Source of the DNA: an uncultured delta proteobacterium
GTDB taxonomy: Bacteria > Desulfobacterota > Desulfobacteria > Desulfobacterales > UBA11574
Assembly (NCBI GenBank): GCA_963752565.1
Contig: CAVVZC010000021.1
Span: 64,934-128,933, forward strand
Length of the DNA stretch: 64,000 bases
Direction: 5' to 3'
Shown: one piece after another, positions 48,930 through 64,000 of the stretch
How the letters are laid out: every line of letters starts with the position of its first letter
Position numbering within the stretch: the stretch's first letter is position 1
Program-made: the position numbers and the translations under genes
Notes under the pieces: model-generated
Seen by the model: the letters and a program-made list of their open reading frames with translations, nothing else
What the model was told of the DNA's origin: nothing
Database searches by the model: none

Positions 48930-49388
48930 ATGGAGTATTGGAGTGATGGAGTGGTGAGAAAGAACCGAAACCGCGGATACCAAAAGTTAACGGTGTGGAA
49001 AGATGCCATCGAATACTATGTGCTGACGTGTGATGTCTTTCGGTCTTTTCCTTTCGAGTTGAAGCGGGTGTCCTCACAACAGATAGCATCATCCGATTCT
49101 GTTCACCGAAATATCGCGGAGGGATACTGCCGACGTTCGATCAAGGAATACCTCAATTTCCTGAACATTTCTCTGGGTTCTTTGGGTGAGTCCGTATCAG
49201 GGCTCTTCGGTTATGTTAATGCAAAACAAATATCCAAGGCACATTTTGAGAAACTCGATTCCTTAGCCTATAAACTTGAAAATGGGCTTTTGAAGCTTGT
49301 TGAAAGCCTGGAGCGAAAGCGAGACAAAGGAGAATGGATTGACCATTTGGTTGTCAAGGAAAGCAATGCCGTTTATGGAAAAGAGTAA
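48930..49388 (+). CDS. four-helix-bundle protein (23S rRNA intervening-sequence protein family)
   Basis: 152 aa. YQKLTVWKDAIEYYVLTCDV, SVHRNIAEGYCR and EYLNFLNISLGSLGES are characteristic of the family. The first about 9 codons are encoded by the (GGAGTNNN)3 repeat. Confidence 0.75.
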   Translation: MEYWSDGVVRKNRNRGYQKLTVWKDAIEYYVLTCDVFRSFPFELKRVSSQQIASSDSVHRNIAEGYCRRSIKEYLNFLNISLGSLGESVSGLFGYVNAKQISKAHFEKLDSLAYKLENGLLKLVESLERKRDKGEWIDHLVVKESNAVYGKE

Positions 49389-49508: not shown

Positions 49509-52500
49509 ATGCCTACCACCATCCTTTTGGTCGATGATCATCCGGTTTTTCGAAAAGGACTGCGCCAGCTTTTAGAAGAAGAACAGGATTTTAAAGTGGT
49601 GGGCGAGGCCGGTGACGGGAAAGAGGCAATAGCACTTGTCGGAAAACTATCGCCGGATGTGGTGGTCATGGACATCAACATGCCGAATTTCAACGGCATC
49701 GAGGCCACCCGGCAAATTGTTTCCGATTTTCCTGAAACCAAAATCGTGGCCCTGTCCATTCACTCCGGGAAACGTTTTATCGAAGATATGCTGCGAGCCG
49801 GTGCCGCTGGCTACATCCTGAAGGAATGCGCTCCCGAAGAGCTGACAAACGGCATGCGCGCCGTAATACGCGGCGAGATTTACCTGAGTCCTTCAGTCAC
49901 TGGAATTGTCGTTTCGGAGTTTGTGAAGGCAGAGACAAGCTTGCAGGATTCCGGAGATTATGATATGTGGACGGCCGGCAAGACGACCTCAATCATACAC
50001 ACCAAACTCCACCGGCCTCCGATTCCCCAAAACCATGTTCATCGTTCTCGGCTGCTTGAACAGCTTGAAAAGGGCCTCCGGAAACAACTCACACTGGTAT
50101 CGGCCCCTGCCGGATATGGCAAGAGCATCCTCTTGAGCTGTTGGCTGGAAAACTGTGATTGCCCCAATGCCTGGTATTCAGCGGATGAGAGCGATAACAA
50201 CCTACGTCAGTTTTTGATTTACTTTTTGACCGCTTTCCAGACCATGTTTCCCGACGCCGTGGAAAAGACCTTGGCCTTGGCAAACAGTGGAAATCTGCCT
50301 CCGATGAAGGTATTGCTGGCCAGCTTGATCAACGAAATGAACCTTGTTGATCAGGACTATATCCTGGTAATTGATGACATTCACCTGGTCCAGGAGAAAC
50401 AGATATACGACCTGTTAACTGAACTGCTGCGACATCCGCCGCAACGCATGCACCTGGTGCTGATCGGACGGCGGGATCCGTTTTTGCCCATATCTTCCTT
50501 CCGAGCCCAGGGACTGATGACTGAGATCCGCTTGCAGGATCTGTGCTTTACATCGGCAGAGACAAAGGCCTACCTGGAACAGGTGCTTGGGGAGCAAATC
50601 GAGGATGCCGTCGCCGAAAAATGGACGGAAATAACTGAAGGCTGGATAGCCGGATTACTCTGGCGGGACTTTCCATGCACCACAGGGGCGATGCAGCCGG
50701 CATTTTGTCCGAACTGCCTGAAGACATTCAATATGTGACAGAATATCTTTTCAATGAGGTTTTTAAGAGTCAATCTCCGGAAATTCGCCATTTTCTTTTG
50801 AGTACGGCCATTTTGGATCGATTCTGTGCGCCGTTGTGCAAGGTGTTGGTCGGCCTGGATGCAGAGTTAAGGCCGGATGACATAAATTCCTGGGATATTC
50901 TTGATTTGGTTAAAAATCAAAACCTGTTCGTCGTCAACCTGGACGCGGAAAACCGCTGGTTCCGATACCATCACCTGTTTCAGCAACTTCTGAAAAACCA
51001 GTTGATGCTGCATCGGAGCTCCGATGAGATTGTCGCCCTCCATTCCCGGGCAGGCAATTGGTTTGCCGAAAACAATCTTATCGATGAAGCGATCCGGCAT
51101 TTGCTGGCCGCTGGTGACGTGATCGGAGCGGCACAACTGGTTGAGAAAAATCGACAGGCCATGCTCGATAGTGATAGATGGTACGTCTTTGAAAAATGGC
51201 TGTCCATGTTGCCTGATACCGTTATTCAACAGCGGCCTATACTTCTCATGGCTCGAGTCTGGACACTCTATCATCAATTTGACATTCCGGCAATTCCATC
51301 GGTTGTTGATGCTGTGGAAGCGCTTTTAAAAGACGATCCTATGGAGCAGCATCTGCGTGGAGAAATCGATTTTTTTCGCGGGTATATTTACTATTTTCAG
51401 AATAAAGGTTCACACAGCCTGAAGCACCTTCAAGAGGCCCTGAAATTGGTTCCCGAGAAATATCATGAAATTCGAGGCCAGATCGAAATACTATATGGAT
51501 TGGCCAGGCAAATGCAAGGTCAGAAAGAAGACGCCGTTAAAACTCTGACTGACTTGCTGAATCATAAACAGCCGCCATTTAGCGTAAGGAAGACCCGTCT
51601 GTTGGTGACGCTTGTCTATATCCACATTATCTCGGGAGATCTGTACAAGGCATTCGTTGCAAACCAACAACTCTTTGACTTCGCAACAAAAAACAACTAC
51701 ATCTATGCGAAAGTGTGGAGTGTGTATCTTAAGGGACTGATCCACTTTTACCGTAATGAACTTGGAATGGCCATCGATCATTTCGGTCAAGCAATAGAAC
51801 AAAAATACATCTTTCACACTCGAGCTGTGGTTGACAGCATGGCCGGACTTATTTTTTCGTATCAAGCCGAAGGACAACCCGACCGGGCCGGCGAAACCAT
51901 GCAAAGCCTTTTTAAGTATGTTGCTTCCCAAAATGATCCGACCTATTTAATGATTGCTGACTCATGTAACGTACGGTTGTCGATCATGCAAGGAGAACTG
52001 ATATCAGCGATGGGTTGGCTTCGAGAAAGTTCTCCGCCCGTTGAGAACATGGTCTGGTGGCTGGAAATACCCGCTGTCACCCATTGCAAGGCACTTCTTG
52101 CTGAAGGATCGGACGAGAGCCTCGAGAAAGCCGAAATAAAGCTTCGGGAACTTTTGCAGCTGAATCAGGACAATCACAATACCTGTCATACGATTCACAT
52201 TATGCCTTTGCTGGCCATGGTGTATCATAAGCAGGGGCGGGATGATGAGGCGCTCACCATTCTGGAACAGGCCGTCGACCTTGCAAAACCCGGCGGATGG
52301 ATTCGGCCATTCGTTGAATTGGGTTCTCCCATGGTCGACTTGCTGAAACGATTGCCCAGGCAAAACGTCCACACGGAATTTGTCGAGAAACTCCTCGCTG
52401 CTTTCAGCGATAAGCAAACAGATCCTCCCGGTTTCCCAGTTCCCCCCTCTCCAAGTCCCCAAGTCTCCCCATCTCCAAGTCATCCCACTCCCCAGCCCCT

Positions 52501-52702
52501 GGTCGAGCCCCTGACCAACCGCGAGCTCGATATCCTGGATCTGCTGGCACAGCGTCTCCAAAACAAGGAAATTGCAGAGGAACTGTTCATTTCAAAGGAA
52601 ACCGTCAAAACACACCTGAACAACATCTACCAGAAGCTCAACGTCACCAATCGACGGAATGCGGTTGAAAAGGCCAAAAATCTGGGAATCCTTTCCCCTT
52701 AG
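49509..52702 (+). pseudogene. REC - STAND/MalT-like ATPase - TPR - LuxR HTH regulator, split by a 1-nt frameshift near 50652-50656
   Basis: ORF 49509-50738 carries the REC domain (ILLVDDHPVFRKGL, VVVMDINMP) and a P-loop (SAPAGYGKS). ORF 50675-52702 continues with MalT-like helical repeats and ends in LTNRELDILDLLAQRLQNKEIAEELFISKETVKTHLNNIYQKL. Frame 2 is open from 50639 and reads ...ITLAGLSMHHRGD, which continues ...TEGWIAG of frame 0. Confidence 0.7.
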
Positions 52703-52952: not shown

Positions 52953-54209
52953 TTATATGATGGAGGTTTGACGCAGCAGTTCATGAACCGGCAGAAAAGA
53001 AAGCGCTGTTCCGCTTAGATCAAGTGTTTTATTGAGGTTCAGATTAATGATGTAGGCCCGCTCCGGATTGTATCTGTGGATGAAGCGGCGTAAAGATGCC
53101 GGCACTTTATCCTGTTTAAGGTGTTGGTATTTGACCTCCACCGGAATCAGACGTTGGCCGGCTTCAATCACGAAATCCACTTCGGCCTTATCCTTTGTCC
53201 GCCAGAAATTCAGTTTGGCAGCCTTGAACCTAAGTTTTTGTCTTAATAATAAAAAAACAAGATTTTCAAAAACAAATCCCCCTTCAGTCGGGCTTTCAAG
53301 GTGCCCGAAAAGCCCCAGGGAGTAGTTCCTGAAACCCAAATCCCAAAAATAGGGCACGGGTGATTTGCTGATTTCTTTTCGTACGTTGCGTGCATAAGGT
53401 GCCATGAGTTCGACAATAAATATCTTTTGAGCGTACCATAAATACTTTTTAACGGTAGGAAACGAAACATTCAACGTCGAAGCAAGCTCAGAGTAGTTCA
53501 TTAACTGTCCGACCTGGCCGGCAAGAATTTTAATCATAGCGCTGAAGGCATCGGGCTTGTCCAATTTTAGAAGATAAGCAATATCCTTTTCCAGGATGCT
53601 ACGGTAGATCTCATCGATGAGACGAAGTTTTTCGCCTTGTTCAACCGCCATGACGACTCTGGGGTATCCGCCGAATGTCATATATTCGATCAGCAACTGC
53701 TGTGCCCTGCCTTTTTCTATTGCCATAAAATCTGCAAGGTTTTCTTCATACCTGTAATCTGTCCGATGGTTGATAAATTCTTCCAAGGTTATGGTGGATA
53801 ATTCAAATAGTCGTTTTCGGCCAACAAGCGATTCATGTATCTTTTGTTTCAACTCCAGACTTCCGGAGCCGGAAAGGATAAACTTATAGGGCAACTTAAG
53901 ATCATAAAGGCCCTTCAAAAACAGGCCGGCATCATCTTTACGCTGGATCTCATCGATGAAAACATAACCGTGCTGCTGACCCAATTCCAGTTCGACTTTT
54001 CTAAGCAGTGCAGCCTGAGACTCAAAATGAGGTCTGTCCCATTCAATGTCGAGATTTAAAAACAGTGTCCGCTCACCGCGATTGTCCAGATGCTCCTGCA
54101 ACATCTCCATCAGTGTCGTTTTGCCGGCCTGCCGGGGTCCGATGATAAGACTCATCTCCTTCTGCGGAAGATGATCAACCAATTCCGAAAACAACTTTCG
54201 CTTAATCAT
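52953..54209 (-). CDS. AAA-type ATPase with DUF4143-like C-terminal region
   Basis: 418 aa. Walker A IGPRQAGKTTL and Walker B VFIDEIQ. The overall pattern is that of the AAA_14/DUF4143 'ATP-binding protein' family. Confidence 0.7.
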   Translation of the reverse strand: MIKRKLFSELVDHLPQKEMSLIIGPRQAGKTTLMEMLQEHLDNRGERTLFLNLDIEWDRPHFESQAALLRKVELELGQQHGYVFIDEIQRKDDAGLFLKGLYDLKLPYKFILSGSGSLELKQKIHESLVGRKRLFELSTITLEEFINHRTDYRYEENLADFMAIEKGRAQQLLIEYMTFGGYPRVVMAVEQGEKLRLIDEIYRSILEKDIAYLLKLDKPDAFSAMIKILAGQVGQLMNYSELASTLNVSFPTVKKYLWYAQKIFIVELMAPYARNVRKEISKSPVPYFWDLGFRNYSLGLFGHLESPTEGGFVFENLVFLLLRQKLRFKAAKLNFWRTKDKAEVDFVIEAGQRLIPVEVKYQHLKQDKVPASLRRFIHRYNPERAYIINLNLNKTLDLSGTALSFLPVHELLRQTSII

Positions 54210-54318
54210 GATTTAATGATAGCACGAGAATTTATAAAGTCAATATGAATTATTTGCGCCCATAGCCCATACCCCCAACCTTCGTTTCATTATCCCCTGT
54301 CCCCTGCCCCATTTTTTT

Positions 54319-54365
54319 CAACCCAGAACCCGGAACCTTGAACCTTGAAACCTGAACCCGAAATC
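54319..54365. repeat. 7-nt-periodic (GAACCNN)n block
   Basis: CAACCCAGAACCCGGAACCTTGAACCTTGAAACCTGAACCCGAAATC. Related blocks lie at 57667-57696, about 58590-58615 and about 62009-62037. Confidence 0.7.
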
Positions 54366-55523
54366 TCAAGGTTTTGAAAGCAACAATTTTTCTCCATGGA
54401 TGACACTAATTTCTTCTGTAACCGGAAAATTTCTTTCTCCCATATACACCACAAATCCTTTGTGAATGACGCCTTCGTCGATGCCGGCTTGTAAATTGGC
54501 CCAGTCACTTTTACCAATGGATACCGAACACTTGAATTCAAATCCAATTCTCTCGGAGCCCCGGTCAATGATCAGATCGATCTCGGCACCGGCATGCGTT
54601 CTGTAAAAATAAAAAAGACTGCCGGCGTTTTGCAGCATTTCCAGGCTAATGAGTTGCTCAATCATAAAACCTTCCCAACTGCTTCCCCTTTTGGGCGATT
54701 CCAGCAGGGATCTTTCACTGGTAATTCCCAAAAGGTAATGCAATATCCCTGAATCCCGCATGTATATTTTTGCCGATTTTACGATTCTTTTTTTTATGTT
54801 CGGAAAATACGGGGATAAGCGTCGAACAATAAAATGACCTTCCATTAGATCCAGATAATTTTGAATTGTGTGATAGGAAACCCCCAGAGACCGTCCAAGG
54901 TCAGAAGCATTAAATAGGCCACCGTGCTGGTGAGCGAGCATAACCATCAACCGTCTGATCTGTATTGGAGATATCTTTACGCCATACCGCGGAATGTCAC
55001 GTTCAACAAACGTGCGGAGATAGTTTTCCTGCCAATTTTGCCATTTGGATTCTGTTTTTTCTCTTAATGCATCTGGAAACCCGCCCTTCAACCAAAAATT
55101 ATGAATGTCAATCTTCAGAGCGGTTATTTCCGAAAAGAGAAATGGCGTCAATTCAACAATACCGACCCTTCCGGCAAGGCTTTCTGAAATATGTTTCACC
55201 AGAACAGGATTCACAGACCCCAATAGGGTGTAGCTTCCGGTCTGTTGTCTGTCCAGATCAATCATAGATCTGAGAACAGGAAATAATTCCGGCAATGTCT
55301 GAGCCTCATCGATAATGAGAGGCGGTTCAAATCTTTTAAGTGCAAACTCAATGTCGTCTACAAACACTTGCTGATCAGACGGCCTTTCGAGATCAAAATA
55401 TTCACCCTCAAGAAAGTGCTTGGCCAGCGTGGTTTTACCGCACTGCCTCGGACCCAGGATAAGGACCGCCGGGAACTGTTGTGATAATTCTCGCACCATG
55501 ATTTCGGCTTGTCGTTTAATCAT
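54366..55523 (-). CDS. AAA-type ATPase with DUF4143-like C-terminal region (second paralog)
   Basis: 385 aa. Walker A LGPRQCGKTTL and Walker B IIDEAQ. Same architecture as the neighbour. Confidence 0.7.
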   Translation of the reverse strand: MIKRQAEIMVRELSQQFPAVLILGPRQCGKTTLAKHFLEGEYFDLERPSDQQVFVDDIEFALKRFEPPLIIDEAQTLPELFPVLRSMIDLDRQQTGSYTLLGSVNPVLVKHISESLAGRVGIVELTPFLFSEITALKIDIHNFWLKGGFPDALREKTESKWQNWQENYLRTFVERDIPRYGVKISPIQIRRLMVMLAHQHGGLFNASDLGRSLGVSYHTIQNYLDLMEGHFIVRRLSPYFPNIKKRIVKSAKIYMRDSGILHYLLGITSERSLLESPKRGSSWEGFMIEQLISLEMLQNAGSLFYFYRTHAGAEIDLIIDRGSERIGFEFKCSVSIGKSDWANLQAGIDEGVIHKGFVVYMGERNFPVTEEISVIHGEKLLLSKP

Positions 55524-55587
55524 GGTTGAATATTAGCACTACAACTTCTATATTTCAAGTGTTTTTTAATCACTTCCGTCAAAATAT

Positions 55588-56262
55588 CCCGTCCCCCAGT
55601 TTCTCCATCTCCCCATCTCCAAGTCTCCAAGTCTCTCCTTCCCCTTATCTTCCTGACCTCTGACCTCCGACACCTGTTGGAGCGAAGCGGAAATCCCGAT
55701 TTATCGGGGATCCCCTATGACCTGTTCCCTGACACCTTTCCCCATCACTCCAGCACTCCAACACTCCATTTCTTTTCCCCCATCCCCCCGTCTCCCCGTC
55801 TCCCGTCTCCAGTCTCCCTCCCTGACCTCCGACACCTGTTGGAGCGAAGCGGAAATCCCGATTTATCGGGACCTATGACCTGTTCCCTGACACCTTTCCC
55901 CATCACTCCAGCACTCCAACACTCCATTTCTTTACCCCCATCTCCCCGTCTCCAAGTCTCTCCTCCCCATCTCCTGACCTGACCTCTGACACCTGTTGGA
56001 GCGAAGCGGAAATCCCGATTTATCGGGGATCCCTGACACCTTTCCCCATCACTCCAGCACTCCAACACTCCATTTCTTTTCCCCCATCTCCCCGTCCCCC
56101 CGTCTCCCCGTCTCCCGACCCTGACACCTGTTGGAGCGAAGCGGACTTGTCCGCCTGTGCAGTGTGGCGGAAATCCCGATTTATCGGGGACACCCGAAAC
56201 CTGACACCTTTCCCCCATCACTCCAGCACTCCAACACTCCATTTCTTTACCCCCTCCCCCAT
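55588..56262. repeat. tandem array of four 135-160-bp composite repeat units
   Basis: Each unit is (CTGACC/CTGACACC)n, then GTTGGAGCGAAGCGGAAATCCCGATTTATCGGGGA, then CTGACACC, then CATCACTCCAGCACTCCAACACTCCATTTCTT, then (CCCCGTCT)n. Core copies lie at 55676-55710, 55838-55871, 55995-56029 and 56130-56190; the last carries a 26-nt insert. Confidence 0.85.
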
Positions 56263-56376
56263 TCCTAGCCCTTTTTTAGCCCTTTTTGGGGGATGTAAAG
56301 CCCCTTGGCGTAGACTAATCTAAAATTGCAATTATCCACCAGACCCATCTTTCTATAAAGATAAGGAACAAGAATC

Positions 56377-56712
56377 ATGCCGTATAAGATTAAAGATAGG
56401 TATCTGAAACTTGGGACGCCGGCTATCTATCGCATCGACGTCGAGGGGCCTCTGGATGAAAGCTGGTCCGACCGCCTTGCCGGTATGTGTATCAACCCAC
56501 ACAAAAGAACGGATCAATCAACGGTAACGACTCTGATTGGAAAAGTGATGGATCAGGCTGAGCTGACGGGAGTGCTCAACAGCCTCTATGAATTGCACCT
56601 GCCGATCTTAGCGGTGAAAGTTCTCAACGAAAAAAATGGCGATCGTGAAGATGAACTGAAGCCTGACCAGCCATCTCTATTGGAATCTGATGGGTCAGAT
56701 CGTACGAAATGA
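56377..56712 (+). CDS. small hypothetical protein
   Basis: 111 aa. The pattern YRIDVEGPLDESWSDRLAGM...TTLIGKVMDQAELTGVLNSLYELHLPILAV recalls a widespread small uncharacterised family. Confidence 0.5.
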   Translation: MPYKIKDRYLKLGTPAIYRIDVEGPLDESWSDRLAGMCINPHKRTDQSTVTTLIGKVMDQAELTGVLNSLYELHLPILAVKVLNEKNGDREDELKPDQPSLLESDGSDRTK

Positions 56713-56760
56713 TGGGCATCATGAATGGTAAATCAATTTGCCGCAAAGGAGCTATGAATA

Positions 56761-57583
56761 ATGAAACAATTTAGAATCATTACACTTTTATTTGCAGCAC
56801 TCAGCCTGTTCAATATCGCAGCCTTCACTCATACCGTTCGGGGGGAAGACAAAGGCACACAGGATCTGGCCAAGGCCGCCCAGAATCCGGTGGCCAACAT
56901 GATCAGCCTGCCGCTCCAGAACAATACCAATTTCGGTGTCGGGCCGGGGGACGACACACAGAACATGCTCAATATTCAGCCGGTGATTCCCGTCAAGCTG
57001 AGCGAGAACTGGAACCTGATCACCCGCACCATTGCACCGGTGATCTATCAGCCGGAACTGGTCCCGGGAACCGGCAGCGAGTTCGGCCTCGGGGATATCA
57101 ACACGACCCTGTTTCTCTCACCCGCCAAGCCGGGGAAACTCATTTGGGGTCTTGGACCGGTGCTCTCCTTCCCCACGGCCACTGACGACGTTCTGGGCAA
57201 CCGACAAATGGAGCGCAGGACCCTCGGTCGTGGCACTGACGATACAGGGCCCATGGGTCGTCGGTGGGCTCGCCAGCAATCTGTGGTCCTTTGCGGGTGA
57301 CGATGATCGACCGGATGTCAATCAGTTCCTGTTTCAATACTTTATCAACTACAACCTGCCCAAGGGCTGGTATGTCTCGTCCGCACCCATCATCACAGCC
57401 AACTGGGAGGCGGACAGCGGCAACCAGTGGACGGTGCCCTTCGGAGGGGGTGTCGGAAAGATTTTCAAGATCGGAAAGCAGCCCATAAACGCCCAGGTAC
57501 AGGCCTTTTACAATGTGGAAAAGCCGGACAACGGACCCGACTGGACCCTGCGGCTGCAATTGCAGTTTCTGTTTCCGAAGTGA
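56761..57583 (+). pseudogene. outer-membrane beta-barrel protein (MetA-pathway/phenol-degradation-like transporter family), split by a 1-nt frameshift near 57196-57200
   Basis: ORF 56761-57300 has a signal peptide and runs to ...GLGPVLSFPTATDDVLGN. ORF 57152-57583 in the next frame continues DKWSAGPSVVALTIQGPW...ITANWEADSGNQWTVPFGGGVGKIFK...LQLQFLFPK, ending in an aromatic-rich C-terminal strand. Confidence 0.65.
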
Positions 57584-57589
57584 ATAAAA

Positions 57590-57658
57590 GGTGTCAGGTG
57601 TCGGGTTTCAGATGTCAGCGGTTTACTTTGCCTTTCCTGACACCCGACACCTGACACC
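57590..57658. repeat. (GGTGTCA)n / (TGACACC)n hairpin followed by TTTT (terminator-like)
   Basis: GGTGTCAGGTGTCGGGTTTCAGATGTCAGCGG...CCTGACACCCGACACCTGACACC, then TTTTAA. Confidence 0.8.
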
Positions 57659-57719
57659 TTTTAACCCCTGAACGTTGAACCCTTGAACTTAGAACCTAAA
57701 GTCAATAAAGGAATGAATA

Positions 57720-58457
57720 ATGAAAAGTTTGGTTAGAAACAGCATTTGGATCGCAGCGATTCTGGTTTGGGTCTTTTGCTCGACCGGCATCCTTTATGCC
57801 GAAGAATCCGCCATGGACGACGGCTGGAAGTTCGGTGCCGAGCTCTACTTCTGGGGTGCTTCAATTGGCGGAAAATCGGCTTCCGGCAGTGACATCGATA
57901 TCGATCTCGACGACATTCTCGACAGCTTGGAATTCGCTTTCATGGGATCGGCCGGGATGCGCAAGGGCAAGTGGTCGCTGGTTGCGGATGTGATCTATCT
58001 GGACGCAGAGAATAGCGCCACCATCGCGCCCGGCCTGAACGCCAACGTGGAACTTACCAACTGGATCATCACGCCGCTGGTCGGCTACAACCTCGTCGAC
58101 ACGGGAAAGAGTCGCCTCGATATCGTGGGGGGTGCACGTTATCTCTACATGAAGGCCGATCTGCGGGTGGATGCTTTGGGTGCGCGTGCGGAAGATTCCG
58201 GATCGAATTGGGACGCTATTATCGGCGCAAGAGGTGCCGTGGACCTGGCGGAAAAGTGGTATCTGTTCGGCTATCTGGATATCGGCACCGGGGAGTCGGA
58301 TTTGACCTGGCAGGCCTTTGGCGGAGTGGGCTACCGGTTCAAGTGGTTCGATGTGGTCGCAGCCTATCGCTATCTGCGCTGGGATTTCGACGACAATCAG
58401 GCATTGGACGATTTATACCTCCACGGTCCTGGAGTCGGGATCAGGTTCGCGTTTTGA
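57720..58457 (+). CDS. outer-membrane beta-barrel protein
   Basis: 245 aa. Signal peptide, alternating amphipathic strands, and a terminal ...GVGIRFAF aromatic residue. Confidence 0.65.
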   Translation: MKSLVRNSIWIAAILVWVFCSTGILYAEESAMDDGWKFGAELYFWGASIGGKSASGSDIDIDLDDILDSLEFAFMGSAGMRKGKWSLVADVIYLDAENSATIAPGLNANVELTNWIITPLVGYNLVDTGKSRLDIVGGARYLYMKADLRVDALGARAEDSGSNWDAIIGARGAVDLAEKWYLFGYLDIGTGESDLTWQAFGGVGYRFKWFDVVAAYRYLRWDFDDNQALDDLYLHGPGVGIRFAF

Positions 58458-58492
58458 TGGTCTTGCCGCGAAAACACCGATCGCAAGACACC

Positions 58493-58554
58493 GGTGTCAG
58501 GTTTCAATGGTCCTTTTGTATTTTCCTGACACCTGACACCCGACACCCGAAACC
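58493..58554. repeat. (GGTGTCA)n / (TGACACC)n hairpin
   Basis: GGTGTCAGGTTTCA ... CCTGACACCTGACACCCGACACCCGAAACC. Confidence 0.8.
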
Positions 58555-58558
58555 TAAA

Positions 58559-58585
58559 AAGGTGGAACCTGACACCTTGTTTTTT
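58559..58585 (+). terminator. rho-independent terminator candidate
   Basis: AAGGTG-GAACCTGA-CACCTT stem-loop followed by GTTTTTT. Confidence 0.55.
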
Positions 58586-58642
58586 AGCCCTGAGCCCAGA
58601 ACGGTGAACCCGGAATTTAAAGTTAATAAAGGAGATAACAAA

Positions 58643-60193
58643 ATGAAAACGAAAACATTAACACTCATGGCCTTTACCATACTGCTGGCGTCCAGCCTAA
58701 TTACTCCGGCTTCCGCCCAGCAGGAAAAGAGCATCTTCGAGCAGGCTGGCAGTCGAAGCCAAATACACTACCGGAGACTTCAAGCCTGCGCCCGGCAGAA
58801 GATTGAAACCCGGTTCGGAACCTGGAACTTCCCCGGCGGCTACCCCACGGAAGAGACCACGCAGAAGGTCTACGACGAGCTGGATCTGCAGCGCGCCACC
58901 CAGTTGTATCTCGATATGTATCCCGCCCTGTCCATGCGTGGAATGATGCTCGGAACGGCGCGTGATTACGGCGCAAAGAACAGTTCGGATATCTCGGTTA
59001 CTGCCGACCGACTGGATTCCAGCGCATTGTTCCTGACCGGTAATACGGAGAGTATCTATGCCATGATCGTGTTTGACCTTAAAGTAGATGGCCCTACGGT
59101 TTTTGAAGCGCCCGCCGGATTGATGGGCCCTGTGGATGACGCGAACTTCCTGTTTGCTTTCGATATTGGCCCCACCGGCATGGACAAAGGCAAGGGCGGA
59201 AAATACCTGATTCTTCCTCCTGGTTACAAAGGTGATGTGCCGGACGGCTATTTTGTATTTAAATCGCCGACCAATCGTCTCTTTTCGTTTGTCCGCGCCA
59301 ACGCGGCGGTGGTCGGAACCGGCGAAAAAGCGATGGAATTCTTTCGCAAGAACGCCAAGGTCTATCCATTAAAAACCGGACCGAGGAAAGGCAAGTTTAC
59401 CAATGTGTCAGGGGTGCCGATCAATACATTGGTTCCCGAAGATGCCACCGCTTTCGAATGGATGCATGACATCATCAACTATGAACCGGCCGAAGCCTTC
59501 GGCAAAGAGAAGCTGGGACGTCTCGCATCCATCGGTATTGTACAAGGCAAGCCGTTCAACCCCGACGCCCGCATGAAGAAGATCCTGGACCAGGCCGCTA
59601 AAGAAGGCGTGGCGATGTCCCGCGTGATCGCGTTCGACAGTCGTCAGTCCATGGCGAAGGTCTATCCGAATCGTATGTGGGAGAGCCCCTACATCGGCGA
59701 CAGCTCAAGCTTCGATCCGGATGGCTACTTTAATCTGGAGTCGCGGACGACGTTCCACTTCACCGCTGATGGTATCACGCCAGCCATGGCGGCCCAAATG
59801 CCGGATGGATTGGGTTCCAGATACCAGACTACTTACAAAGATAAGAATGGCAACTCGCTTGACGGCAATAAGACCTATAAGCTGCACATGCCGCCGAATG
59901 TTCCGGTTAAACTGTTTTGGGCTGTGACGGTCTACGATCCATGGAACCGTTGCACAATCCAGACTCAGCCGTACCCAAGCATCAGCAGCCAGCAGAAGCC
60001 GGCACCAACCACCAATGGTGATGGTTCCATCGACATCTATTTCTCGGTCGAGAAACCAGCCGATGTTTCGAAAGCGAACTGGGTCAAAACCCTGCCGGAC
60101 CAGGGATTCTTTGTCTACATGCGCTACTACGGTCCGCTCAAGGCGTTCAACGAAAAGACCTGGATCCCCAATGATGTGGAACTGGTGAAGTAA
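58643..60193 (+). CDS. secreted DUF1254/DUF1214 two-domain protein (paralog A, GC-rich)
   Basis: Start at ATG 58643 (SD GGAGA upstream). Signal peptide MKTKTLTLMAFTILLASSLITPASA. GPTGMDKGKGGKYLILPPGYKGDVPDGY and C-terminal PPNVPVKLFWAVTVYD...DGSIDIYF...NWVKT...FFVYMRYYGPL. The track ORF start at 58208 runs through the repeats and is not credible. Confidence 0.75.
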   Translation: MKTKTLTLMAFTILLASSLITPASAQQEKSIFEQAGSRSQIHYRRLQACARQKIETRFGTWNFPGGYPTEETTQKVYDELDLQRATQLYLDMYPALSMRGMMLGTARDYGAKNSSDISVTADRLDSSALFLTGNTESIYAMIVFDLKVDGPTVFEAPAGLMGPVDDANFLFAFDIGPTGMDKGKGGKYLILPPGYKGDVPDGYFVFKSPTNRLFSFVRANAAVVGTGEKAMEFFRKNAKVYPLKTGPRKGKFTNVSGVPINTLVPEDATAFEWMHDIINYEPAEAFGKEKLGRLASIGIVQGKPFNPDARMKKILDQAAKEGVAMSRVIAFDSRQSMAKVYPNRMWESPYIGDSSSFDPDGYFNLESRTTFHFTADGITPAMAAQMPDGLGSRYQTTYKDKNGNSLDGNKTYKLHMPPNVPVKLFWAVTVYDPWNRCTIQTQPYPSISSQQKPAPTTNGDGSIDIYFSVEKPADVSKANWVKTLPDQGFFVYMRYYGPLKAFNEKTWIPNDVELVK

Positions 60194-60204
60194 CGTTAAA
60201 AAAA

Positions 60205-60274
60205 GGTGTCAGGTGTCAGTGTTCAGGTGTCAGTATTTTCAACGCCTGACACCTGACACCCGACACCTGAAACC
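60205..60274. repeat. (GGTGTCA)n / (TGACACC)n hairpin
   Basis: GGTGTCAGGTGTCAGTGTTCAGGTGTCAG ... CCTGACACCTGACACCCGACACCTGAAACC. Confidence 0.8.
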
Positions 60275-60299
60275 TTTATCTTGTAGAGGAGGAAACACA

Positions 60300-61853
60300 A
60301 TGAAAACAAATCACTTTTTCACATTGGCAATAGCCATGATTATGGTGAGCAGCCTGACATCTCCAGTCTGGGCCAAATCCCATAAAACAAAGATGATTAC
60401 CCAGACGCCGAAAATGAAAATGACGACCCCAATTCCGGTAAATATAACTACACCGGATAAAATAGAGTCACCGATCGGAACATTGGAGTTTTTCGATGGT
60501 GTACCCAATCGTAAAACAATAGATGCAGTATATGATTATGTTGACCGTGCAAGGGCAGTAGAGGCTTTTATTAATATGACGCCAGCCGTTTCGTTATACA
60601 ATCTACGTAAAGGGAATCGTGATATGGAAATGGGTAATTGTAACCAAATATTAATTTGGGAGCAGTTAGGCGATTCTAAGTCACTTGCACTTACCTATAA
60701 CAACACGTCTTTATATACTTGGGGATTTCTTGATCTTAAGAAAGACGGCCCTACGGTAATAGAAATTCCTCCCGGTGTACTCGGTATTTTAGATGATGCA
60801 GCCTTTAGATATATTACCGATATGGGAGCAGCCGGTCCTGATAAAGGAAAAGGCGGGAAGTACCTGGTTTTACCTCCGGGATACAAAGGTGATGTGCCGG
60901 ATGGATATTATGTATATAGATCAAACACCTATAATGTTTGGAATTTTATGCGAGGTTACACCAAAACCGGTGTTGAAGCAGCTGCAACTAGAATTAAAAA
61001 AAACCTGAAAGTGTATCCATTATCGGAAAAAGACAATCCTCCTAAAATGGAATTCAAAAATATGTCGGGTGTGTATTACAACACTGTTGCCCCGAATGAC
61101 TATACTTTCTTTGAAGACCTGAACCAAATCATTCAGGAAGAGCCGGAAGGTTTTTATGATGCTGAAAACTTAGGTATCTTAAGATCATTGGGTATAGTAA
61201 AAGGTCAGCCTTTTAACCCGGATGAACGCATGAAAAAATTATTAACAGAAGGTGTAAATATAGGAAATGCTTACGCGCGTGCAAATACCATTGAACCACG
61301 CGATCCGGGTCACTACTACTATCCTGGCACCAAAAGCGAATGGGTAATGGCTTTCGCCGATAACGACACTTACTTCTTAAAAGATGGTGCACGTCGTATG
61401 GATTCACGTTTGTGGATGCATTTTAATGCAGTGTGTGTAACTCCAGCCATGGCATTAACCAAACCAGGGGCTGGTTCACAATATGGCATTGCAGGTATGG
61501 ACTCAGAACATAGAGCTTTAGATGGCGCCAAGACTTATAAAATGCACTTACCACCGAAGTTTCCAGTTAAAGATAATTGGTCTGTAACAATTTACGATCC
61601 GCAAACAAGATGTATGCTTCAAACCGATCAGAAGTTTGCCGGTATCAACAGCTTAAGCGGAAAAGTAAAAGAAAATAAGGATGGATCTATTGATGTTGTT
61701 TTTGCCCCTACTTTACCTAAAGGAGTTAATGAAGGCAATTGGGTGCAATCTATTCCAGGCAAGAGCTGGTTCATCATCTTACGGGCATACGGGCCTTTGG
61801 CACCATGGATCGACAAGACCTGGCGGCCGGGTGAGCTTGAGATGGTGAAGTAG
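60300..61853 (+). CDS. secreted DUF1254/DUF1214 two-domain protein (paralog B, AT-richer)
   Basis: ATG 60300 is preceded by GGAGGAAAC. Signal peptide MKTNHFFTLAIAMIMVSSLTSPVWA. GAAGPDKGKGGKYLVLPPGYKGDVPDGY and C-terminal PPKFPVKDNWSVTIYD...DGSIDVVF...NWVQS...WFIILRAYGPL. Confidence 0.75.
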   Translation: MKTNHFFTLAIAMIMVSSLTSPVWAKSHKTKMITQTPKMKMTTPIPVNITTPDKIESPIGTLEFFDGVPNRKTIDAVYDYVDRARAVEAFINMTPAVSLYNLRKGNRDMEMGNCNQILIWEQLGDSKSLALTYNNTSLYTWGFLDLKKDGPTVIEIPPGVLGILDDAAFRYITDMGAAGPDKGKGGKYLVLPPGYKGDVPDGYYVYRSNTYNVWNFMRGYTKTGVEAAATRIKKNLKVYPLSEKDNPPKMEFKNMSGVYYNTVAPNDYTFFEDLNQIIQEEPEGFYDAENLGILRSLGIVKGQPFNPDERMKKLLTEGVNIGNAYARANTIEPRDPGHYYYPGTKSEWVMAFADNDTYFLKDGARRMDSRLWMHFNAVCVTPAMALTKPGAGSQYGIAGMDSEHRALDGAKTYKMHLPPKFPVKDNWSVTIYDPQTRCMLQTDQKFAGINSLSGKVKENKDGSIDVVFAPTLPKGVNEGNWVQSIPGKSWFIILRAYGPLAPWIDKTWRPGELEMVK

Positions 61854-61862
61854 GAGATAAGT

Positions 61863-61980
61863 ATTCAGGTGTCAGGTGTCAGTGTTCAGGAAAATGAAGG
61901 TGTCAGTGCTTGTCAGCCTCTGGCTGATTCAGGTTTCAGGAAATACAAACCACGATCTGACACCTGACACCTGAAACCTA
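61863..61980. repeat. (GGTGTCA)n / (TGACACC)n hairpin region
   Basis: ATTCAGGTGTCAGGTGTCAGTGTTCAGG...GGTGTCAGTG...TCTGACACCTGACACCTGAAACC. Confidence 0.8.
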
Positions 61981-61987
61981 AAAAGGT

Positions 61988-62010
61988 GGAACCTGAAACC
62001 GGTTCCTTTT
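61988..62010 (+). terminator. rho-independent terminator candidate
   Basis: GGAACC-TGAAACC-GGTTCC stem-loop followed by TTTT. Confidence 0.55.
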
Positions 62011-62049
62011 ATAAAGCCAGAACCCTGAACCCTGAAATGGAGGTATAAA

Positions 62050-63033
62050 GTGAGCAAGAATCGGGGGTTAGCAAAGACTGTGATAACGATATTGGCGCTG
62101 GTGCTGTTGAGCAGTGCCGGCGCGCTTGTTACTCCATTAGCAAACGCCGATGAAGGCGGTGCGAGCTTCTGGCTTCCCGGGCAATATGGTAGTCTGGCAG
62201 CGACGCCGGCCGAACCCGGATGGTCCATGCCGTTGATCTACTACCACAGCTCTACGGACGCCAGTGGCAGCAAAAACTTTACGATAGGCGGCAGCCTCAC
62301 CGCGGGTATCGATGTCGACGTAGACTTACTACTCGTTGTACCGACCTATGTTTTCGCCAAGCCCGTCTTCGGTGGCCAAGCGACTCTCAGCGTTGCCGCA
62401 GACTACGGACGTGCGGAAGTTGATGTGGATGCCACACTGACGGGACCGGGCGGGGGCGTCCTGTCCGGCAGTGAAAGCGACTCAAACACCGCTTTCGGGG
62501 ACCTTTTTCCCTCTGCTTCCCTTCGCTGGAATCATGGCGATCACAACACCATGATCTACACCATGCTGGGTGTGCCTGTAGGCAGTTATGACGTTGAACG
62601 CCTGGCCAATATCGGTCTCAATCACTGGTCGGTTGATGCAGGCGGCGGCTACACCTACCTCAACACGAAGACCGGCCGTGAGTTCTCTGCGACGGCAGGC
62701 CTCACCTACAACTTCGAAAATCCGGATACCGACTACCAGAACGGTATCGATGCCCACCTGGATTGGGGTGCCTCGCAATTCCTGTCCGAGCAGGTGCATG
62801 TTGGCCTGGTCGGTTATTTTTACTATCAGATCACCGGTGACAGCGGTGACGGCGCCGTACTGGGAGACTTCAAATCCCGCGTCAACGGCATCGGGCCGCA
62901 GGTGGGATACATCTTCAAAATGGGCGGAAAAGATGCCTATCTGAACCTCAAAGGGTATTGGGAATTCGGCGCTAAGCATCGGCCGGAAGGCTGGAATGCT
63001 TGGCTCACCCTGGTGCTGCCCCTTGGCGGATGA
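62050..63033 (+). CDS. outer-membrane beta-barrel transporter (MetA-pathway/phenol-degradation-like family)
   Basis: 327 aa. GTG start 6 nt after GGAGG, signal peptide ending ANA, EGGASFWLPGQYGS, and strands rich in G/Y/F. Family assignment is by pattern only. Confidence 0.6.
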   Translation: MSKNRGLAKTVITILALVLLSSAGALVTPLANADEGGASFWLPGQYGSLAATPAEPGWSMPLIYYHSSTDASGSKNFTIGGSLTAGIDVDVDLLLVVPTYVFAKPVFGGQATLSVAADYGRAEVDVDATLTGPGGGVLSGSESDSNTAFGDLFPSASLRWNHGDHNTMIYTMLGVPVGSYDVERLANIGLNHWSVDAGGGYTYLNTKTGREFSATAGLTYNFENPDTDYQNGIDAHLDWGASQFLSEQVHVGLVGYFYYQITGDSGDGAVLGDFKSRVNGIGPQVGYIFKMGGKDAYLNLKGYWEFGAKHRPEGWNAWLTLVLPLGG

Positions 63034-63119
63034 AGCAAGTAACGTTGAAAAGATCCGGGGCAAAGCAGGTGGATCCAGACGCGGCCGGGTGATCCGGAGC
63101 TGGTCAAGTAGCAGGAATA

Positions 63120-63163
63120 GGTTTCAGGTGTCAGGTGTCAGCGAAACACAAATCCTGAAACCT
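63120..63163. repeat. (GGTGTCA)n hairpin
   Basis: GGTTTCAGGTGTCAGGTGTCAGCG...CCTGAAACC, followed by TTTAAA. Confidence 0.75.
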
Positions 63164-63217
63164 TTAAATCTCATAACACATAACTCTTAACCCTAATTTA
63201 ATAAGGAGAAATACAAA

Positions 63218-64000
63218 ATGAAAACAAAACAGTTATTTACACTGGCTATGACATTATTGATCGCCACCTGTCTGGTGACCACCGTCTGGGCAAAACCGCC
63301 CAAATTTAAAATGACCACCCAAATTCCGGAAAATGTTTTAATTCCGGATAAGGTAAAAACGCGTTTGGGTACACTGGAATTTTTTGATGGCGTACCTACA
63401 GCTGAAACCGCCCAACTCATCTGGGATAATCAGGACTTTTCTCGTGCTGTAGAGTCCATGATCATGTGTACGCCGGCCGCTTCACTTGCAGGTTTCAGAA
63501 GAGGAATCCGTGAATATGGCCCCGATAATGAAACCGCCATTATCTGGGAAAGTCGTCTAGATTCTAAAGGACTTCTGTTAACCGGTAATACGACGGTGAT
63601 CTACCTGTTCATGTGGATTGACACGAAAAAAGGGCCGGTTGTTATGGAAACACCCCCCAATGTATTGGCCATATTAGACAACTTCTGGTTCCACTATGTC
63701 ACCGATATTGGAAATGCAGGGCCCGATAAAGGTAAAGGTGGGAAATACATCATTCTTCCACCTGATTATAAAGGAGACCTGAAAGAAGGCCCCTTTGTTA
63801 AACGATCAGACACCTATGGTAACTGGTTAGCTGTAAGAGGTTTTCCTAAGGGCGATGACAACGCAGCGGTCGTGAAAAATATTAAGGATCATTTGAAAGT
63901 ATATCCTTTGGCGGAAGCTAAAAATCCGAAACCTGTAAAGTTTTATGACGTATCGAACAAGTATATCAACACCTTGCATGCACAGGATATAACATTCTTC
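63218..64000 (+). CDS. secreted DUF1254/DUF1214-type protein (paralog C), 5' partial, runs off the window end
   Basis: Absent from the ORF track because no stop falls inside the window. Hand translation from ATG 63218 (AAGGAG upstream) gives MKTKQLFTLAMTLLIATCLVTTVWAKPPKFKMTTQIP...GNAGPDKGKGGKYIILPPDYKGDL...KVYPLAEAKNPKPVKFYD, open through nt 64000. Confidence 0.75.
   Translation, partial: MKTKQLFTLAMTLLIATCLVTTVWAKPPKFKMTTQIPENVLIPDKVKTRLGTLEFFDGVPTAETAQLIWDNQDFSRAVESMIMCTPAASLAGFRRGIREYGPDNETAIIWESRLDSKGLLLTGNTTVIYLFMWIDTKKGPVVMETPPNVLAILDNFWFHYVTDIGNAGPDKGKGGKYIILPPDYKGDLKEGPFVKRSDTYGNWLAVRGFPKGDDNAAVVKNIKDHLKVYPLAEAKNPKPVKFYDVSNKYINTLHAQDITFF

Follow-up and report, generated by a model that had tools for sequence, protein, structure and literature searches.

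Among the described relatives of the proteins considered here, VPA0735 of Vibrio parahaemolyticus (PDB 2p3y, 3vb9) has a DUF1254+DUF1214 'VPA0735-like' fold, and the COG4313/PF13557 channels (Pput2725, PDB 4rl8; TcpY; SphA) form a family of 12-stranded outer-membrane (OM) barrels. COG4313 channels have been linked to the import of hydrophobic molecules, e.g. trichlorophenol and sphingosine (PMC4493636). The known members are encoded in catabolic operons (trichlorophenol, sphingosine), and not, like the member M described below, beside DUF1254/DUF1214 genes; proteins of the VPA0735 type occur in the present locus as several diverged paralogs in a row, with OM barrels among them. The sequence-only reading of this DNA had held that such pairing is undescribed and that the DUF1254/DUF1214 family lacks an established function, and in the searchable literature we found neither an account of the pairing nor a function for the family.

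A conserved envelope gene cluster fills the end of the window (the whole stretch of DNA analysed, 64,000 nucleotides) at positions 56377-64000, where all genes are co-directional on the + strand in the order 's', B1, B2, paralog A, paralog B, M and partial paralog C. The module had earlier been delimited by these positions, but it is larger and starts near 45.3 kb with a sensor kinase; the region is the beginning of the cluster, located beside a two-component regulator pair. The gene order, strand and family calls proposed earlier hold in the ORF translations and Pfam matches, and the profile searches found DUF1254 in all three paralogs, DUF1214 in A and B, and PF13557 in M. The DUF1254/DUF1214 paralogs are referred to as D genes or D proteins. 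Signal peptides, called by eye from the translations, are present on B1, B2, A, B, M and C, and 's' has none. The features are the following, with palindrome energies and z-scores taken from RNA fold computations.

45357..48029, + strand: sensor histidine kinase (Pfam; N-terminal translation)
48048..48182, + strand: heptamer-repeat palindrome after the kinase gene, (GGTGTCA)n...(TGACACC)n; -59.7 kcal/mol, z = -7.3
48930..49388, + strand: 23S_rRNA_IVP-like four-helix-bundle protein (Pfam E = 4.2e-18)
49509..52702, + strand: REC-AAA(STAND)-TPR_MalT-GerE (LuxR-type) response regulator (Pfam), split by a frameshift
52953..55523, - strand: two AAA_14/DUF4143 ATPase genes (52953-54209 and 54366-55523; Pfam)
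55560..56290, no strand: tandem array upstream of 's', 4-5 units of ~158 bp (repeat families D1-D3)
56377..56712, + strand: 's', 111 aa, heading the structural block
56761..57583, + strand: B1, 273-aa exported protein, probably an OM barrel; one-base insertion at ~57199
57583..57666, + strand: heptamer-repeat palindrome after B1, then UUUU (inverted repeat I5); -48.6 kcal/mol, z = -10.1
57720..58457, + strand: B2, 245-aa exported protein, putative small OM beta-barrel
58490..58550, + strand: heptamer-repeat palindrome after B2, a weaker fold; -28.8 kcal/mol, z = -2.9
58643..60193, + strand: paralog A, 516 aa, exported; Pfam DUF1254 E = 1.7e-18, DUF1214 E = 1.4e-28
60198..60282, + strand: heptamer-repeat palindrome after A (inverted repeat I4); -44.5 kcal/mol, z = -9.0
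60300..61853, + strand: paralog B, 517 aa, exported; Pfam DUF1254 E = 1.5e-26, DUF1214 E = 1.1e-26
61860..61986, + strand: heptamer-repeat palindrome after B (inverted repeats I15, I17); -52.7 kcal/mol, z = -6.2
62050..63033, + strand: M, 327-aa OM channel, PF13557 (Phenol_MetA_deg / COG4313), E = 5e-49
63218..64000, + strand, running off the window: paralog C, exported, 261 aa visible; DUF1254 E = 1.4e-22

The three D proteins are mutually ~42% identical (42-43%), and all carry the signal peptides ascribed to them before (ending ...TPASA/QQ in A, ...SPVWA/KS in B and ...TTVWA/KP in C), and are exported rather than cytoplasmic. The GPDKGKGGKY motif described as common to them reads GMDKGKGGKY in paralog A, and the C-terminal motif claimed for all three is not checkable in paralog C, because the corresponding stretch extends past position 64000, outside the window. 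Paralog B matches VPA0735 in the PDB (E = 5e-71, over residues 55-517), the motif GPDKGKGGKY...LPPG is found in both, and the AlphaFold2 model of paralog B (pLDDT 84) has the same fold (TM-score 0.81/0.90 to 2p3y, rmsd 2.6 A); as VPA0735 itself is without an assigned function, this match names the fold only. The fold search with this model returned four uncharacterised structural-genomics entries and a weak jelly-roll/CBM likeness (TM-scores ~0.1-0.2) and no informative structural analogue, and papers and the PDB yielded no function. Among 72 diverse D proteins, the residues conserved in at least 90% are T, N, Y, R, Y, E, R and a glycine loop, and a classical His/Cys/Ser/Asp set is absent from them; this pattern fits binding better than a classical hydrolase.

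Of the two 'MetA-like' barrels proposed, M belongs to PF13557 over its full length (168 bits vs a cut-off of 22) and its sequence weakly matches the solved COG4313 channel 4rl8 (E = 0.013), and the other, B1, has no Pfam match even at E = 5 and no PDB match. Since, in addition, PF13557 is touched by only 6 of 37 B1 homologues (best 5e-6) and profile-profile comparison of B1 with the M family by hhalign gives E = 1.3e-3 at 18% probability, the term can denote only a remote kinship, and B1 is at most a distant relative of PF13557/COG4313, not a member. The frameshift reported in B1 is supported: its ORFs (56761-57300 and 57152-57583) merge into 273 aa upon deletion of one C at ~57199 ('ggc aaC c gac aaa tgg'), and the restored protein aligns over its full length to intact homologues (81% with L019 and L009, 92% with P0121; the L numbers denote loci from other genomes, see below). 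For B2, the ORF and the signal peptide stand, and its barrel nature is putative, being suggested by the signal peptide, the C-terminal ...GIRFAF and sub-threshold matches to TIGR04219 (E = 0.0018) and DUF481 (E = 0.034); it is 64% identical to the gene in the same position of L019.

Upstream, the kinase comprises a signal/TM segment, a ~330-aa periplasmic domain, a second TM segment, PAS domains, HisKA_3 and HATPase_c. Its C-terminal half is 50% identical to the L019 kinase in the same position, and the kinases of L019 and L086 have SBP_bac_3/NMT1 sensor domains in place of the periplasmic domain seen here. The IVP-like gene between the kinase and the regulator is 81% identical to that in the same position of L019 and is also found there in L086. 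The regulator is split into overlapping ORFs (49509-50738 and 50675-52702) with the frameshift near 50660-50735; in L019 it is a single 1074-aa ORF, and tblastn places both halves in one L019 frame. The regulator and B1 are thus the two module genes frameshifted in the window, and both frameshifts fall within the ~19 kb that separate the start of the kinase gene from the end of the window. The two ATPase genes are located between the regulator and 's', both matching the PADLOC candidate defence family PDC-S01 (E = 2e-83 and 4e-93); comparable genes occur in this place in L009, L084 and L085, and they are probably inserted passengers rather than parts of the module. The tandem array that follows has no Rfam match, and 's' has no match in Pfam, NCBIfam or PADLOC and 425 homologues, all without a name. 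The arms of the inverted repeat after B1 are 27 nt long with 96% complementarity. Given the frameshifts in B1 and the regulator, and the strong hairpins between nearly all genes, the locus in this genome may be inactive or not form one transcript.

We compared the cluster with 76 loci from other genomes (the L numbers), drawn from the 80 best matches to paralog A, and detected barrels by means of profiles for which those of the window served as seeds. Two to five D genes are present in 57 of these loci and at least one barrel in 30; homologues of B1, 's' and B2 occur in 18, 17 and 10 of the 76, respectively, with 's' mostly immediately 5' of the first barrel or D gene and 3' of the MalT-LuxR regulator. 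Up to 2 kb from a D gene there are 1.17 barrels per 10 kb, vs 0.24 at greater distances, an approximately five-fold difference (p = 2.5e-8) that applies to these 76 loci rather than genome-wide, as they are the best paralog A matches and the profiles were seeded on the window. A nearby barrel has the strand of the D gene in 39 of 42 cases. The pairing of barrels and D genes noted in the sequence-only reading is therefore not due to chance. In L001, M is followed by two D genes, an Omp85-like barrel, four D genes, AI-2E and B1 with gaps of 9-72 bp, and interleaving is also seen in L004, L017, L023 and L050. The order kinase, IVP, REC-MalT-LuxR, 's', B1 is common to the window, L019 and L086; this regulator type adjoins the cluster in 19 of the 76 loci, and in reciprocal look-ups both of two B1 relatives and one of two 's' relatives fell in the same cluster type.

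The commonest partners in the related loci are periplasmic sulfatases (23 of 76), none of which is encoded within the window; others are an anaerobic sulfatase maturase (492 bits on TIGR03942), a secreted HAD hydrolase, MscS, CorA, AI-2E and LolA-like DUF2092. Signal peptides are carried by the sulfatases, the HAD hydrolase and one amidohydrolase, and no dedicated inner-membrane importer is consistently present. For each of A, B and C, MAGs that bear the labels of other phyla contain orthologues with 80-90% identity. Those of A are 80-87% identical in L006, L007, L008, L010 and L019, and at the nucleotide level A and L006 agree at 86.7%, counted from 57 nt 5' of the start codon through the stop codon; for B the identity is 87-90%, in MAGs labelled as Bacteroidales and Ignavibacteria; and C, as far as visible, is 87% (amino acids) and 90% (nucleotides) identical to L004. 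The M gene has 79% nucleotide identity to that of L086, and GC3 varies across the module from 0.37 to 0.69 (0.66 in A, 0.37 in B). The cluster recurs in many bacteria and appears to be laterally mobile, and its genes bear signs of gene-by-gene exchange.

Our best guess, offered tentatively, is that the module serves to take up organic compounds, possibly sulfated ones, and to handle them in the periplasm. The kinase, through its periplasmic sensor domain, would signal to the REC-MalT-LuxR regulator, which would switch on the structural genes, presumably co-transcribed; the small OM barrels (the true COG4313 channel M, the remotely related B1 and the 245-aa B2) would admit small amphiphilic or anionic organic molecules to the periplasm; and the array of diverged D proteins would bind or handle them, each paralog possibly with its own ligand range. 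Periplasmic formylglycine sulfatases and the secreted HAD hydrolase of the related loci, here probably encoded past 64 kb, would strip ester groups, and inner-membrane AI-2E, MscS and CorA would deal with the products. The 'multi-specificity acquisition or processing' system suggested earlier stays conjectural, as the searches yielded neither a ligand or an activity nor an informative structural analogue.

The partner genes are a mixed set, and MscS, CorA, DUF2092, AsmA/YhdP, the EipA-like protein and CobW would suit envelope homeostasis and uptake about equally. The D proteins and barrels could have the envelope of the cell itself as their target instead of substrates from outside, in lipid or lipoprotein trafficking, OM homeostasis, or osmotic or low-oxygen adaptation. 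Such a maintenance or stress role would be consistent with the recurrence of LolA-like DUF2092 (L005, L007, L054, L081, S. meliloti pSymA), with MscS in 13 of 76 loci, with the recurrent AsmA/YhdP, EipA-like secreted protein, CorA, CsbD-like small protein and PGAP1/LCAT-like lipase, and with alphaproteobacterial D genes that belong to low-oxygen and FixK/NnrR-related regulons and adjoin fixNOQP. We consider it unlikely, since the commonest enzymatic partners (sulfatases and maturase, secreted HAD hydrolase, amidohydrolases) are more typical of substrate processing, a sensor kinase whose periplasmic domain is of solute-binding type suggests ligand sensing, and a distribution that is patchy, near-identity across phyla and a mosaic GC would be expected of accessory niche genes more than of a core envelope machinery. 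It is still less probable that the D proteins are a new enzyme class, e.g. hydrolases or lyases on sulfated or other polymers whose small products the barrels import, in a polysaccharide-utilisation-like locus without SusC/SusD. The top rank of sulfatases among neighbours, OprB carbohydrate porins in 4 of 76 loci, a C-terminal jelly-roll domain faintly resembling carbohydrate-binding modules and beta-galactosidase domains, and the glycosyl-hydrolase role proposed for a Malassezia homologue induced on nutrient deprivation (PMC4634964) point in this direction; however, those fold matches have the low TM-scores given above, neither an acidic pair nor any other catalytic set is conserved across the family, glycoside hydrolases do not usually come in arrays of 3-6 paralogs that diverged anciently and have 70-90% conserved orthologues, and COG4313 channels are tied to hydrophobic solutes, not sugars.

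Whether the locus is decaying in this genome is a separate matter, which can go together with whatever function is ascribed to the intact cluster elsewhere. Two frameshifts within ~19 kb, and the DUF4143 genes with a tandem-repeat stretch of 730 bp, which would uncouple the regulator from the operon, argue for decay, as do L084 and L085, where 's' is followed only by tiny ORFs in what may be a degraded cluster. Yet single-base indels often are assembly errors (though neither is in a long homopolymer), high conservation and intact reading frames are seen in A, B, M, B2 and what is visible of C, and no clear frameshift is seen elsewhere in the window, so that we regard real decay as somewhat doubtful. 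Finally, the mosaic GC3 and the orthologues of neighbouring genes in different donors would also be expected if barrels and D genes were functionally unlinked, often-transferred accessory genes landing in the same hot spot. This is very improbable given the local barrel enrichment and shared strand, the operon-like spacing in L001, and the order of regulator, 's' and barrel, kept across several loci despite regulators diverged to 50% identity.

The module favoured here, for uptake and periplasmic handling, can be compared with polysaccharide-utilisation-type loci and sulfatase operons, which combine an OM importer, binding proteins, periplasmic hydrolases and a dedicated sensor-regulator. It resembles them in the periplasm-sensing two-component regulator, the OM channels, the several exported proteins and, in relatives, the sulfatases and maturase. 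Unlike polysaccharide-utilisation loci, it has no SusC/TonB-dependent transporter, SusD or recognisable glycoside hydrolase; its channels are small passive barrels, and its multi-copy part is the DUF1254/DUF1214 family. Like the NarL/LuxR-type two-component systems with MalT-like STAND regulators, it pairs a HisKA_3 kinase with a REC-AAA/STAND-TPR_MalT-GerE protein, although the fusion of a receiver domain to the MalT-like STAND module is an uncommon architecture.

The structural genes at the end of the window run co-directionally on the forward strand from 56377 to the window end, in the order given by the sequence-only reading, whose observation as a whole holds with minor corrections. The module is larger than that reading stated, as it also includes a kinase, an IVP-like gene and a regulator upstream of the structural genes. 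The features of the region are as follows.

45357-48029: histidine kinase gene (TM-flanked periplasmic domain of ~330 aa, PAS domains, HisKA_3)
48930-49388: 23S_rRNA_IVP-like four-helix-bundle gene (IVP), between kinase and regulator
49509-52702: REC-AAA/TPR_MalT-GerE regulator, two overlapping ORFs
52953-54209 and 54366-55523, reverse strand: two AAA_14/DUF4143 ATPase genes, between regulator and structural genes
55560-56290: tandem array of 4-5 units of ~158 bp (~730 bp), just upstream of 's'
56377-56712, forward strand: 's', small protein of 111 aa
56761-57300 and 57152-57583, forward strand: B1, putative outer-membrane barrel, two overlapping ORFs
57720-58457, forward strand: B2, putative outer-membrane barrel, 245 aa
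58643-60193, forward strand: paralog A (DUF1254/DUF1214), 516 aa
60300-61853, forward strand: paralog B (DUF1254/DUF1214), 517 aa
62050-63033, forward strand: M, PF13557 outer-membrane barrel, 327 aa
63218 to window end, forward strand: paralog C (DUF1254/DUF1214), first 261 aa visible
48048-48182, 57583-57666, 58490-58550, 60198-60282 and 61860-61986: tandem-heptamer palindromes (GGTGTCA)n...(TGACACC)n, after the kinase, B1, B2, A and B, respectively
63118-63141: single heptamer arm, at the M-to-C junction

Typical Sec signal peptides, read by eye, are present on all three paralogs, as had been proposed, and also start B1, B2 and M; 's' has none. The motif G(P/M)DKGKGGKY(L/I)(I/V)LPP(G/D)YKGD is indeed common to A, B and C; the C-terminal motif ascribed to all three is found in A and B, the corresponding part of C being outside the window. 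The Pfam domains DUF1254 and DUF1214 occur in this order in paralog A (67.6 and 100 bits) and paralog B (93.6 and 93.9 bits), the gathering cut-offs being 22.2 and 25 bits; the visible part of paralog C matches DUF1254 (80.8 bits), the DUF1214 portion falling outside the window. Thus, A and B are members of the DUF1254/DUF1214 (VPA0735-like) family with both domains above the cut-off. Pairwise identity among the three paralogs is 42-43%.

For paralog B, AlphaFold2 run with an alignment gave a model (pLDDT 84, pTM 0.84) that matched 2p3y_A (VPA0735) in Foldseek with E = 7e-46 and TM-scores of 0.81/0.90, the predicted fold being that of VPA0735. The homologues found by this model in the PDB were 2p3y, 3vb9, 3u07 and 6ans, all uncharacterised; apart from VPA0735 itself, only VPA0106 and a Burkholderia protein genuinely share the fold. 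The remaining resemblances of the model (bicupin, CBM, SPRY, with a weak jelly-roll likeness and TM-scores of ~0.1-0.2) are not informative, and a profile search of the PDB with the alignment of the family yielded nothing further. Crystal structures of the family have existed since 2007. The claim that it has no established function stands: the family is large, with 9,684 clusters (50% identity, E <= 1e-3), four structures with its fold are solved, and no function was found in the searchable literature, where DUF1254, DUF1214, PF06863, PF06742, VPA0735 and COG5361 are mentioned only incidentally (a speculative Malassezia glycosyl-hydrolase model, regulon tables, a pANL plasmid gene).

Among 72 diverse DUF1254/DUF1214 proteins, the positions conserved in at least 90% are T132, N134, Y139, R218, Y239, E281 and R495 (paralog B numbering), as well as a glycine loop (G176-G186) and some prolines and glycines. 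As no obvious nucleophile or acid set is found among these positions, conservation lends mild support to a binding role rather than catalysis. The homologues P0015, P0032, P0046, P0361 and P0363 (850-1016 aa) are matched twice by the query and appear to be two DUF1254/DUF1214 units fused in tandem, which would fit paralogs acting together.

Of the two MetA-like barrels proposed earlier, one is upheld. M matches PF13557 (Phenol_MetA_deg) with 168 bits (E = 5e-49, cut-off 22) over profile positions 3-241 of 242, and hence is a full-length member of the PF13557/COG4313 channel family; its sequence match to the solved COG4313 channel 4rl8 is weak (E = 0.013). COG4313 channels are implicated in taking up hydrophobic molecules, e.g. 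trichlorophenol and sphingosine (PMC4493636). The other candidate, B1, fails a full-length match to PF13557. Dropping one C at ~57199 joins both its ORFs into a 273-aa protein, which aligns without gaps over the full length with intact genes in the loci L019 and L009 of other genomes (81% identity) and with the homologous protein P0121 (92%). Neither the reconstructed protein nor its halves matched Pfam up to E = 5, and comparison with the PDB, by single sequence and by profile, gave nothing credible. PF13557 is touched by 6 of 37 B1 homologues (best 5e-6), and hhalign of B1 against the M family gave E = 1.3e-3 with 18% probability over 147 columns; given these weak matches, B1 is related to the MetA/COG4313 barrels remotely at best and is not a demonstrable member. 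It belongs to a very large family without a Pfam model, with at least 7,999 homologues at E <= 1e-5, of which the best 120 are unnamed and have no precomputed Pfam domain.

Pfam matches are likewise absent for 's' and B2. The latter has a signal peptide and the C-terminal ...GIRFAF; it scores 17.5 bits with TIGR04219 (below the cut-off of 105), is sub-threshold for DUF481 (E = 0.034), and reaches E = 2.5e-3 in hhalign with DUF481-type neighbours. Export of the DUF1254/DUF1214 proteins by the barrels seems unlikely, as barrels of 245-330 aa would be too small for folded 55-kDa proteins.

The repeated pairing of barrels with DUF1254/DUF1214 proteins was examined in GTDB representatives (one genome per species) containing relatives of the paralogs, which gave 76 loci, each taken with at most 10 kb of flanking sequence per side. 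Profiles seeded from the proteins of the window served to assign their ORFs, and the remaining ORFs were clustered. Two to five DUF1254/DUF1214 genes were observed in 57 of the 76 loci, a minimum given the many short contigs, and 30 loci contained at least one barrel (B1, B2, M, DUF481, OprB or Omp85-like). Within 2 kb of a DUF1254/DUF1214 gene, the barrel density was 1.17 per 10 kb, compared with 0.24 per 10 kb in the remainder of these loci (binomial p = 2.5e-8), and 39 of 42 nearby barrels were on the same strand as that gene. Hence, there is strong evidence that the pairing exceeds chance within these loci. They were sampled as those matching paralog A best, with barrels detected from the window's own, so that the excess applies to this sample rather than genome-wide. 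In locus L001, M is followed by two DUF1254/DUF1214 genes, an Omp85-like barrel, three more such genes, a small ORF, another such gene, AI-2E and B1, with intergenic gaps of 9-72 bp; interleaving similar to that in the window is also seen in L004, L017, L023 and L050. In reverse look-ups, both B1 relatives (2/2) and one of two 's' relatives fall in the same clusters. The pairing is thus real, recurrent and exported, and no previous description of it was found in the searchable literature.

The kinase matches HisKA_3 (E = 1.6e-14) and HATPase_c in Pfam, and the regulator, Response_reg (E = 8e-31) and GerE (E = 1.4e-20). The order kinase, IVP, REC-MalT-LuxR regulator, 's' and B1 onward is common to the window, L019 and L086. 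The IVP-like gene, found at the same position in L019 (2499-2954, 81% amino acid identity with the window) and L086 (5071-5508), is apparently an odd yet stable member of the regulatory block in these three loci. As the L019 regulator is a single 1074-aa ORF, the window regulator carries a frameshift near 50660-50735, which together with that in B1 makes two indels in one cluster. This type of regulator adjoins the cluster in 19 of the 76 loci, and 's' occurs in 17 of them, usually directly after the regulator and directly before the first structural gene. In L009, L084 and L085, too, DUF4143 ATPase genes separate the regulator from 's'. In L084 (10001-11331) and L085 (1705-3035), an 's' homologue comes after genes for a GerE-domain regulator and a DUF4143 protein and is itself followed by only four tiny ORFs (50-84 aa) where barrels and DUF1254/DUF1214 genes would be expected; this arrangement may represent a copy of the cluster that has decayed or been deleted. 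Upstream of the kinase, the window contains an unrelated nucleoside-type ABC uptake operon (38166-44643; Bmp/PnrA-like binding protein, ATPase, two permeases), followed by a purine or uridine phosphorylase and a phosphoribosyltransferase.

The 158-bp units upstream of 's' are C-rich on the forward strand and share a conserved small hairpin (GGAAATCCCGATTTATCGGGGA); the array (55560-56290) has no Rfam match and no credible ORF, and an Rfam scan of the window from 45 to 64 kb revealed no credible RNA family. The gene junctions measure 106-196 bp, except for that of 's' and B1 (48 bp), and every junction but the latter has a heptamer palindrome, with one arm only between M and C. Four of the five complete palindromes yield RNA folds of -44 to -60 kcal/mol (z -6 to -10); the one after B2 folds more weakly (-28.8 kcal/mol, z = -2.9), and UUUU comes after the palindrome 3' of B1. 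All 20 matches of the heptamer motif in the 64-kb window lie within 48.0-63.2 kb. Homologous loci have their own palindromes made of other heptamers, and the window's motif is not kept. Since relatives use different heptamers, the palindromes look like genome-specific repeat elements, and they may be attenuators, terminators or mRNA stabilisers; a role as conserved LuxR-type operators was rejected, the exact motif being absent from 86 of 87 loci. Co-transcription in the window is unproven because of the long, hairpin-bearing junctions; the gene spacing in relatives looks operonic.

For each window paralog, orthologues elsewhere are far closer than its in-array paralogs. Those of A are 80-87% identical (L006, L007, L008, L010, L019), those of B are 87-90% identical and come from MAGs labelled Bacteroidales and Ignavibacteria, and those of C are 83-87% identical (L004, L006); more generally, neighbouring window genes have their nearest orthologues in MAGs labelled as different phyla, the labels being taken from record titles. 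Nucleotide identity is 86.7% between A and L006, where the match stops at the gene border, 82.7% between B and L020, and 90.2% between C and L004; for the regulators it is only 65-69%. GC3 varies gene by gene (B1 0.57, B2 0.69, A 0.66, B 0.37, M 0.65, C 0.44), the overall GC of the first 45 kb of the window being 0.446. Similar mosaics were observed in L029, L004, L019, L023 and L007; other arrays are homogeneous. We read this pattern as ancient paralog types that would have been individually exchanged between distant lineages. Identities of 80-90% with MAGs labelled as other phyla, together with the mosaic composition within arrays, point to unusually active lateral exchange, which in turn would suggest a niche-adaptive role. 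The mosaic GC and the palindrome after each gene made an integron cassette array worth considering. This was rejected, as no integrase is present among the annotated ORFs from 38 kb to the window end or among recurrent neighbours, and the palindromes, judged by motif, are tandem heptamers whose sequence is unconserved across loci, not attC-like elements (R''/R' core RYYYAAC...GTTRRRY). The cluster is, then, a conserved, apparently mobile envelope cluster with an adjoining regulator, built around a large orphan family.

Its commonest neighbour in the sampled loci is a sulfatase (23 of 76), often in several copies, accompanied in four loci by an anaerobic sulfatase maturase (TIGR03942, 492 bits, cut-off 349). 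Further partners are MscS (13 loci), a HAD hydrolase (8) and, in a separate subgroup, an AraC regulator (11), as well as DUF481 and OprB barrels, AI-2E transporters, CorA, LolA-like DUF2092, amidohydrolases with CobW, and AsmA/YhdP. Signal peptides are present on the HAD hydrolase, on the sulfatases and on one of the amidohydrolases, and the enzymatic partners are thus periplasmic, like the DUF1254/DUF1214 proteins. On plasmid pSymA of S. meliloti (L088, CP073679.1, 375978-379096), a hypothetical gene, DUF2092, a hypothetical gene and DUF1254 lie upstream of cbb3 ccoNOQP (fixNOQP), one small hypothetical ORF separating DUF2092 from DUF1254; this placement is consistent with the mentions of DUF1254 in tables of FixK/NnrR and iron or low-oxygen regulons.

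The association proposed by the sequence-only reading holds, and its acquisition or processing function is still an inference. The main rival is a role in envelope homeostasis, favoured by the partners DUF2092, AsmA, EipA-like, MscS and CorA and by the low-oxygen regulons. The joint occurrence of a two-component regulator that senses the periplasm, small passive channels in the outer membrane, several diverged periplasmic proteins and periplasmic ester hydrolases leads us to favour, tentatively and with somewhat less than even confidence, an accessory system that takes up and handles amphiphilic or anionic (e.g. sulfated) organic compounds. A wider version, which we consider rather unlikely, is a widespread, undescribed mode of organosulfate or amphiphile acquisition, in which ligands would enter through the small passive channels and be handled by the periplasmic DUF1254/DUF1214 array in concert with periplasmic sulfatases and phosphatases, and paralogs would be swapped cassette-like across phyla, retuning specificity; if true, it would provide the first function for a family comprising some 10,000 sequence clusters. 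Typically, the family is found as arrays of paralogs that diverged long ago and lie in physical linkage with outer-membrane channels, periplasmic sulfatases and a dedicated sensor-regulator pair, and so an orphan family becomes a testable system, with inducers to seek, partners to co-express and phenotypes to score.

Among known systems, a Bacteroidota-type PUL is defined by an adjacent pair of a SusC-like TonB-dependent transporter and a SusD-like lipoprotein; the stretch of the window from 38 kb onward has no such pair, nor does one appear in the annotated families that recur as neighbours in 81 loci, and the cluster is not assigned to this type. An anti-phage defence system was also rejected: 's', B2, A, B, M and the IVP-like protein have no match in PADLOC, and only the two intervening DUF4143 ATPases match a candidate defence family, PDC-S01 (E = 2e-83 and 4e-93). 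The known type to which a part of the module does belong is the NarL/LuxR-type two-component system, the kinase having HisKA_3 and the regulator, a receiver and GerE.
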